Source of the DNA: a virus
Lineage: Duplodnaviria; Heunggongvirae; Uroviricota; Caudoviricetes
Strand: one strand, 5' to 3'
Length of the DNA stretch: 23,570 nucleotides
Virus record (IMG/VR): IMGVR_UViG_2563366944_000005
Position 1 is the stretch's first letter. Every line of letters begins with the position of its first letter. A program made the translations under genes and the position numbers. Of the stretch, positions 22,468 through 23,570 are shown in pieces. The notes beneath the pieces are model-generated. The model worked only from the letters and a program-made list of their open reading frames with translations, had not been told where the DNA came from and ran no database searches.

Positions 22468-23570
22468 ATGAGTAAGGTCTTTATTTGCGCTGCTATTCCT
22501 GATGAACTGGCCATAAGGGAAGATGGCGCTGTTGCTGTGGCCACTGCCATTGAAGCTGGTGATGAGCGTCGTGCTCGCGCAAAATTTCATTGGCAATTTC
22601 TGGAGCATTTTCCTGCTGCTCAGGACTGCGCTTATAAATTTATTGTCTGCGAGGATAAACCTGGCATACCCCGCCCTGCCCTCGATTCATGGGATGCTGA
22701 ATATATGCAGGAAAACCGCTGGGATGAGGAGTCTGCTTCTTTTGTCCCGGTTGAGACTGAATCCGATCCGATGAACGTCACTTTTGACAAGCTGGCCCCT
22801 GAAGTACAGAACGCTGTCATGGTTAAGTTCGACACATGTGAAAACATCACCGTTGATATGGTTATTAGCGCACAGGAATTGTTGCAGGAAGACATGGCAA
22901 CATTCGACGGACATATCGTTGAAGCGTTGATGAAAATGCCAGAAGTTAACGCCATGTATCCGGAGCTTAAGTTGCACGCCATTGGGTGGGTTAAGCATAA
23001 ATGTATTCCTGGTGCTAAATGGCCCGAAATTCAGGCAGAGATGCGCATCTGGAAAAAACGTCGCGAAGGTGAACGTAAGGAAACCGGAAAATACACGTCT
23101 GTTGTTGATCTCGCCCGCGCCAGAGCCAATCAACAGTACAGTGAAAATTCAACAGGAAAAATCAGCCCGGTCATTGCTGCCATTCATCGCGAATACAAGC
23201 AGACATGGAAAACACTGGATGACGAACTGGCCTACGCTCTCTGGCCTGGTGATGTGGATGCCGGAAACATTGACGGCAGCATCCATCGCTGGGCAAAAAA
23301 AGAAGTTATCGACAACGACCGCGAAGACTGGAAGCGTATCTCGGCATCAATGCGCAAACAGCCTGATGCCCTTCGCTACGACCGCCAAACTATTTTTGGC
23401 CTTGTCCGTGAGCGTCCGATCGACATTCACAAAGATCCCGTAGCACTGAACAAATATATCTGCGAATACCTGACGACAAAGGGCGTGTTTGAGAATGAAG
23501 AAACAGACCTGGGCACTGTTGATGTTCTCCAGTCATCAGAAACACAAACTGATGCAGTGGAAACTGAGGT
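22468..23570 (+). CDS. ydfE: ydfE-like protein, 5' portion (at least 367 codons, open to window end)
   Basis: Hand translation from the ATG at 22468: MSKVFICAAIPDELAIREDGAVAVATAIEAGDERRARAKFHWQFLEHF...; no stop before the window end; absent from the track because it is incomplete. Confidence 0.7.
   Translation, partial: MSKVFICAAIPDELAIREDGAVAVATAIEAGDERRARAKFHWQFLEHFPAAQDCAYKFIVCEDKPGIPRPALDSWDAEYMQENRWDEESASFVPVETESDPMNVTFDKLAPEVQNAVMVKFDTCENITVDMVISAQELLQEDMATFDGHIVEALMKMPEVNAMYPELKLHAIGWVKHKCIPGAKWPEIQAEMRIWKKRREGERKETGKYTSVVDLARARANQQYSENSTGKISPVIAAIHREYKQTWKTLDDELAYALWPGDVDAGNIDGSIHRWAKKEVIDNDREDWKRISASMRKQPDALRYDRQTIFGLVRERPIDIHKDPVALNKYICEYLTTKGVFENEETDLGTVDVLQSSETQTDAVETE

Follow-up and report, generated by a model that had tools for sequence, protein, structure and literature searches.

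The open reading frame that runs to the end of a 23,570-nucleotide stretch of viral DNA (IMG/VR record IMGVR_UViG_2563366944_000005; hereafter the window) is very probably the 5′ 45% of an early-left-operon gene of lambdoid (Qin-type) prophages, which encodes a modular nuclease of 823 amino acids and is broken by an IS2 insertion after codon 367. This ydfE homologue, which occupies positions 22468–23570 on the forward strand, comprises the first 367 codons of the ‘exonuclease’ gene and is an IS2-cut pseudogene fragment, an assignment that draws on its translation, on PHROG 2082 and Pfam matches and on an AF2 structural model.

From the ATG at 22468, 367 sense codons follow without a stop to the last base of the window, and the annotated start in RefSeq relatives is this same ATG. 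All other open reading frames that overlap the segment encode 153 amino acids or fewer. The 367-amino-acid product matches PHROG 2082 (‘exonuclease’) with E = 2.4e-276 across profile positions 1–367 of 823 and has hundreds of homologues; owing to this match and these homologues, the segment is a genuine part of a gene and a chance reading frame is ruled out. YdfE_N (PF27430) and YdfE_C (PF27432) are placed on the source gene call and its homologues by precomputed Pfam annotation; our local scan of the 367-residue fragment, which used a Pfam copy that predates both models, gave no matches. Residues 1–120 have a pI of 4.48 and residues 60–160 a pI of 4.05, and the complete 823-amino-acid protein is also acidic (pI 4.65). 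The preliminary description of this DNA, made from the letters alone, was thus correct in reporting a continuous frame of at least 367 codons from a clean ATG and an acidic N-terminal region. The AF2 model (mean pLDDT of 80.5) predicts an α/β head (residues 1–100), a helical domain (105–215) and a RecE-like helical domain (245–340), with disorder at residues 220–237 and 345–367. Residues 246–347 match residues 271–372 of RecE.

Over its full length, the window can be aligned to the closest complete Escherichia coli genome, NZ_OZ547117, with 99.5% identity and no gaps; in that genome it forms part of a Qin-like prophage beside rspB. The gene order is dicC, dicA, ydfA, ydfB, ydfC, DicF, dicB, ydfD and the open reading frame, followed in relatives by xis and int; the run from ydfA to the open reading frame is shared by the closest relatives and the source locus. 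The gene for the DicF small RNA (21773–21824, forward strand; Rfam RF00039, 76.7 bits, E = 1.3e-15) confirms the dicB-operon context. On the basis of this order and of DicF, we agree with the original identification of the frame as the terminal, ydfE-like gene of the dicB (early-left) operon, in the distal position ahead of xis–int. The make-up of the dicBF operon and its repression by DicA have been described (PMC10448788). Elsewhere in the window, Rfam models mark two cspA-type thermoregulator leaders in the cspI/cspB region and the sok antitoxin RNA beside hokD (6017–6402, 8912–9304 on the reverse strand and 16150–16321 on the reverse strand), which are ordinary cargo of Qin prophages. The replication-region side of the prophage is likewise decayed: at about 15030–17480 (21033–23480 in our extract L004 of the closest genome), the annotation of that genome has an ISNCY transposase fragment and two more pseudogenes, between ydfW and the methyltransferase and DUF977 genes.

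Beyond the window, the frame is interrupted. A look-up with the DicB sequence of the window led to its source: the window corresponds to bases 1–23570 of the draft scaffold KE136815.1 (assembly GCA_000408005.1), and a gap of 10 N follows directly after base 23570. The contig after this gap reads GAAACTGAGGTGGATTTGCCCC; it repeats the last 96 nt of the open reading frame and then passes straight into the right end of IS2 (...GAAACTGAGG|TGGATTTGCCCC), continuing as ...GAAACTGAGG|TGGATTTGCCCCTATATTTCC.... Downstream on the scaffold are the IS2 open reading frames (minus strand), a gap of 5175 N, TGAGG with codons 368–823, and then xis and int. The contig after IS2 starts exactly with TGAGGTATCTGAT, that is, with the duplicated 5-bp target followed by codons 368–823, and residues 368–823 of the source are identical to those of the intact protein at 455 of 456 positions. 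The first copy of this target, TGAGG, lies at 23565–23569 on the forward strand, and base 23570 (T) is ambiguous: it may continue the gene or open the right end of IS2, TGGATTTGCCCC. NZ_OZ547117 shares this junction and this duplication exactly; its IS2 has TGAGG|TGGATTTGCCCC at the left boundary and ...CCAGTCTA|TGAGG at the right. The source agrees with it at the left boundary, and its contig beyond IS2 opens with TGAGG, so that it shows the insertion signature with the 5-bp duplication on both sides.

The preliminary description had called this reading frame long and intact, and had itself named a stop shortly beyond the window as what would speak against that view. When the sequence is extended, IS2 begins at the first base beyond the frame, directly after codon 367, and read-through into the element adds 13 codons (VDLPLYFQTSVIT) before a stop, which gives 380 amino acids. 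Instead of a single frame of about 823 codons ending in PF16473, the source has the PF16473 part as a separate downstream fragment of 456 codons. We propose that, in the strain of assembly GCA_000408005.1, IS2 entered the gene after codon 367, generating the TGAGG duplication. The insertion would separate a non-catalytic N-terminal module from the catalytic C-terminal domain, and the maximal product would be a truncated protein of 380 amino acids without the nuclease domain, made from the DicA-repressed dicB promoter. Judged by its sequence, the gene in this strain is a pseudogene, similar to K-12 ydfE but with another break site.

The gene family itself is already known, with annotated members in thousands of genomes. 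Of the 5,426 complete E. coli genomes, 3,537 contain 80% or more of the 2,472-bp full gene, under the RefSeq names ‘exonuclease’, ‘3'-5' exonuclease’ and ‘3'-5' exoribonuclease domain-containing protein’, and the gene in the window shares 98% nucleotide identity with annotated ‘exonuclease’ genes. The gene is also present, with protein identities of 99–99.8%, in three viable phages of the lambdoid group, PhiR42_1, HannyBb and Tritos. The earlier hope that a full-length version in this DNA might reveal the function does not hold, as the copy is broken and the 823-amino-acid exonuclease is already annotated in these thousands of E. coli genomes and in several phages. The family is small: within a set of 1.84 billion representatives, it forms 173 clusters at 50% identity.

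The intact protein consists of a head of around 340 residues (YdfE_N and YdfE_C), an acidic linker, a RecE-like region and a C-terminal DEDDh domain. Residues of approximately 246–624 are homologous to the non-catalytic region of RecE (271–601), and a CxxC...CxxC motif, CTACGQTGGGNCPDCG, lies at 551–566. The C-terminal domain is matched by PF16473 (Rv2179c-like; residues 642–813, E = 2.4e-67); the DEDDh motifs (Exo I, D646/E648; Exo II, D746; Exo III, H796/D801) are present in the intact relative only and are absent from the open reading frame of the window. By sequence, the nearest solved relative is 8kel, an exodeoxyribonuclease of 227 amino acids (E = 1.5e-6), which may be T4 DexA. We infer that the intact protein acts as a metal-dependent 3′→5′ exonuclease on nucleic-acid ends early in phage development. 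Its gene appears to occupy the slot in which other lambdoid phages carry exo or recE, and its substrate, its polarity and any role in recombination are suggested by domain homology. A literature search for ‘ydfE’ returned neither a functional study of the intact protein nor an experiment on it. A survey of lambdoid phages published in 2025 noted DnaQ-type nucleases near int in early-left operons, as well as ‘RecE-2’ proteins that lack a nuclease domain (PMC12315714).

BLASTP matches the non-catalytic middle region to RecE at E = 1e-60, and a profile–profile comparison of the YdfE and RecE families is collinear from residue 1 (hhalign probability of 100%, E = 4e-43), with the strong signal confined to residues 240–330. 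Against the NCBIfam RecE model NF007259, which has a cut-off of 1269, the window fragment scores 47.9 bits and the intact relative scores 282, both below the threshold. No recT lies beside the gene, the order being ydfD, exonuclease, xis and int, unlike that in Rac. We therefore rejected assignment as a RecE orthologue on three grounds: the score of 282 against a cut-off of 1269, the lack of a PD-(D/E)XK domain and the lack of an adjacent recT.

Heads of the two kinds are combined with different C-terminal domains. YdfE-like heads are joined to PF16473, to the RecE-type PF12684 or to a Rad52-like region of around 250 amino acids, and RecE-type heads (PF06630) are joined to PF16473 or to PF12684. 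In four relatives (P0134, P0155, P0160 and P0183), a YdfE-like head is followed by approximately 250 C-terminal amino acids without a nuclease domain; these proteins belong to PHROGs that are named ‘exonuclease’ (phrog_2489/7838). All four contain the Rad52-like motif KKSLTDAxKKALSxLGFSADxxLGLYD, for which the Pfam Rad52_Rad22 match is below threshold (E = 0.027), and a search of PDB sequences with a C-terminal domain of the phrog_2489 type returned no matches. The phrog_2489/7838-type relatives may be mis-annotated fusions of a head with an annealase. Relatives pair the same head with three recombination-type C-terminal domains, and the N-terminal module would serve as an adaptor or scaffold for recombination-type effectors. 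A bolder proposal is that the YdfE/RecE head is an autonomous, exchangeable adaptor on at least three effectors (DEDDh exonucleases, PD-(D/E)XK exonucleases and a Rad52-like annealase), and that head-only remnants, such as the 380-amino-acid product here and K-12 YdfE, might stay active, for instance through titration of a partner from the host or the phage; we consider this improbable.

The same architecture bears on whether the truncated N-terminal fragment (380 amino acids here; 306 amino acids as annotated in K-12) could be functional alone and modulate, for example, recombination or phage infection through the adaptor that it shares with RecE. Two independent IS2-mediated truncations have kept the head module, which is predicted to fold confidently as separate domains and is exchanged between different effector domains, and PHROG 5943 is a family of 257 amino acids that matches the head alone. 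However, RefSeq annotates the truncated copies as pseudogenes, many of the ‘short’ family members are partial sequences at contig ends, and no transcript that reaches into ydfE was detected in K-12 (PMC10448788); our literature search found no evidence of selection on, or of a phenotype for, the truncated fragment. We regard an independent function of the fragment as distinctly improbable, and read it as the remnant of the broken nuclease gene.

The evidence for the break comes from a gapped draft scaffold with a 5175-N gap that is larger than the 1.3-kb IS2, and a misjoin is formally possible. The gap in or after IS2 (13099–18273 in our extract L005) is set at 5175 N, whereas at this place NZ_OZ547117 contains an IS2 of just 1.3 kb; either the gap size is overestimated or additional DNA is present there. 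The strain also appears to carry a second, paralogous dicB–ydfD–exonuclease copy, the putative source of the chimeric patch described below, and this second exonuclease copy could be intact elsewhere in the genome. It could be argued on these grounds that the actual genome of the strain has an uninterrupted gene, that the IS2 junction contig stems from the other copy or from a scaffolding error and that the window ends at a mere assembly break: the assembly has gaps of 10 N and 5175 N, and with two related dicB–ydfD modules evident in the strain, contigs could be mis-assigned. Against this, the contig of the window ends precisely where IS2 begins, its last 96 nt recur in the contig that spans the junction and the contig after IS2 opens with the target duplication. 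Moreover, IS2 lies at this gene position in all three of the closest complete genomes (99.3–99.5% identity over the whole window), and such a junction is so rare (4 of the 5,426 complete E. coli genomes) that the match is no coincidence. SCU-172 and MSB1_4I, which rank next to NZ_OZ547117 in closeness, have IS2 at the same position in the gene, with a junction that is only 90.7% identical. An intact gene at this locus is thus very unlikely, and we retain the interpretation of an IS2-broken gene.

A separate problem affects the sequence at the start of the frame. The window differs from NZ_OZ547117 at 128 positions, of which 115 are substitutions within 22046–22614, a 569-bp patch that covers the 3′ three-quarters of dicB, ydfD, the ‘hairpin + T7’ segment and the first 147 nt of the open reading frame. 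All 115 changes are alphabetically upward (A to C, G or T; C to G or T; G to T), and T is never changed; the fractions changed are 40% of A, 28% of C, 10% of G and 0% of T, which is the 3:2:1:0 ratio expected if the larger letter is taken at each column of two diverged sequences. Among complete E. coli genomes, none matches the patch at more than 81%. We overlaid, without gaps, a K-12-like allele and the natural dicB–ydfD allele of strain 510016 (NZ_CP025851; L008), which differ at 208 of 428 columns. Over 22040–22467, the per-column maximum of the two alleles reproduces the window with no mismatches in 428 columns. By comparison, random choice between the alleles gave a mean of 104 mismatches (minimum of 76), the minimum rule gave 208 and shifted registers gave at least 163. 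Other candidates for the second parent (L006, L007, L011 and L012) fitted less well than L008.

For the first 147 nt of the open reading frame, no second parent was found, as L008 accounts for just 5 of 19 changes; the other changes are also all upward and mostly at third codon positions. Overall, 17 of the 19 changes in the frame are at third codon positions, a bias that arises because the second allele is a genuine homologue. The amino acid substitutions T16I, E19D and Y48F of the open reading frame lie in the patch. Of dicB (21999–22187, forward strand), the 5′ 47 nt are genuine and the remainder is in the patch; the 62-amino-acid product as written is no real DicB variant, and the chimeric DicB occurs in one contig only in the gene-position index. 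ydfD (22184–22375, forward strand) lies wholly in the patch, and its premature stop (22343–22345), which underlies a gene call of 53 amino acids, is artefactual. Because the rule of the maximum of two alleles fits exactly, the T7 hairpin, the odd DicB, the ‘truncated’ YdfD and the three substitutions are unreal; we attribute them to assembly, or to the flattening of ambiguity codes, from two putative paralogous prophage copies.

The hairpin illustrates how such an overlay can create a spurious terminator. The preliminary description reported a hairpin with a T7 run ahead of the frame, and the element TTGCCGCCATTGGCGGGGTTTTTTTCC is present at 22411–22437 on the forward strand of the window as given, but it is an overlay artefact and no real intrinsic terminator. 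The segment folds no better than its shuffles (z = 0.22); here the two alleles are offset by 1 nt, and their gap-free overlay gives exactly TTGCCGCCATTGGCGGGGTTTTTTTCC. The real alleles have a modest conserved hairpin, TGCCA(A/G)CAATGGCA followed by GGGATT(T/C)GTT, between ydfD and the exonuclease gene (28413–28436 in L004, equivalent to 22413–22436 of the window). This genuine hairpin may explain Northern blots of K-12, in which ydfABC–dicFB–ydfD transcripts stop after ydfD and none was detected extending into ydfE (PMC10448788).

Natural explanations for the patch fared poorly. A natural divergent allele was rejected on the basis of its absence from every complete genome and the one-directional substitution spectrum; mutagenic hypermutation of a diversity-generating retroelement (DGR)-like kind was rejected because C and G change too, always upward, and the maximum rule is exact. 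That the patch is real biology, whether a novel dicB–ydfD allele or targeted hypermutation or DGR-like mutagenesis creating a strong terminator, might draw on its presence in the deposited assembly rather than in the window alone and on the 17 third-position changes, but it deserves practically no credence given 115 of 115 upward changes with T untouched, an exact two-allele maximum that includes the stretch 1 nt out of register, and a patch carried by no complete E. coli genome. Beyond the patch, the window and NZ_OZ547117 disagree at 13 sites, which lie at 9, 117, 352, 23076 and 23141 and within 4127–4433, among other places; 11 of these mismatches are likewise upward, including a cluster of seven at 4127–4433 and the one at 23141, which produces T225S in the open reading frame. 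Some of these upward mismatches may be flattened ambiguous sites and not true single-nucleotide polymorphisms.

The biological weight of the locus is small, as the gene family has already been annotated and the copy in the window is a pseudogene. A modest point is that RecE-like proteins have a non-catalytic head that is exchanged between various nuclease and putative annealase domains. The remaining lessons concern the reading of draft sequence. Contigs break at insertion-sequence elements, so a frame that is still open where a draft contig stops cannot safely be called intact. In addition, a synthetic chimera of 569 bp, whether present in the deposited assembly or produced by ambiguity-code flattening, gives rise to a terminator, a variant of DicB and a shortened YdfD that do not exist, and such chimeric patches could mislead scans that rely on sequence only.

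Among known systems, the closest is the 823-amino-acid exonuclease itself (WP_000048328.1; PhiR42_1, HannyBb and Tritos; PHROG 2082). Its first 367 residues are the same protein, with 4 differences, of which at least 3 fall inside the artefactual patch; it shares the start codon and the position after ydfD and before xis–int beside rspB. It differs in that the source copy is split by IS2 after codon 367, which places the DEDDh domain past the insertion and outside the window. The Rv2179c-like or DnaQ-like DEDDh enzymes (PF16473; 8kel) resemble the intact protein in residues 642–813, which match PF16473 end to end with the D-x-E, D and H-x4-D motifs; however, those enzymes are small and have a single domain, whereas the intact Qin-type protein has a non-catalytic extension of around 640 residues. 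RecE (exonuclease VIII) of Rac is, like the Qin-type protein, a large product of the early-left operon with a C-terminal nuclease domain, and the two are up to approximately 90% identical around CxxC...CxxC. They differ at both ends: RecE has a 5′–3′ PD-(D/E)XK domain (PF12684) and a PF06630 head, whereas the Qin-type protein has a 3′–5′ DEDDh domain (PF16473) when intact and a head of the YdfE_N type. Finally, K-12 ydfE (b1577) is the same gene at the same locus, inactivated by an element of the same IS2 family; as the preliminary description stated, it is truncated. In MG1655, this pseudogene is identical to the full-length protein up to around residue 256, at which point homology is lost at an IS2E remnant and the remaining gene is gone, whereas the source copy carries a complete IS2 after codon 367 and still has the 3′ part of the gene downstream.
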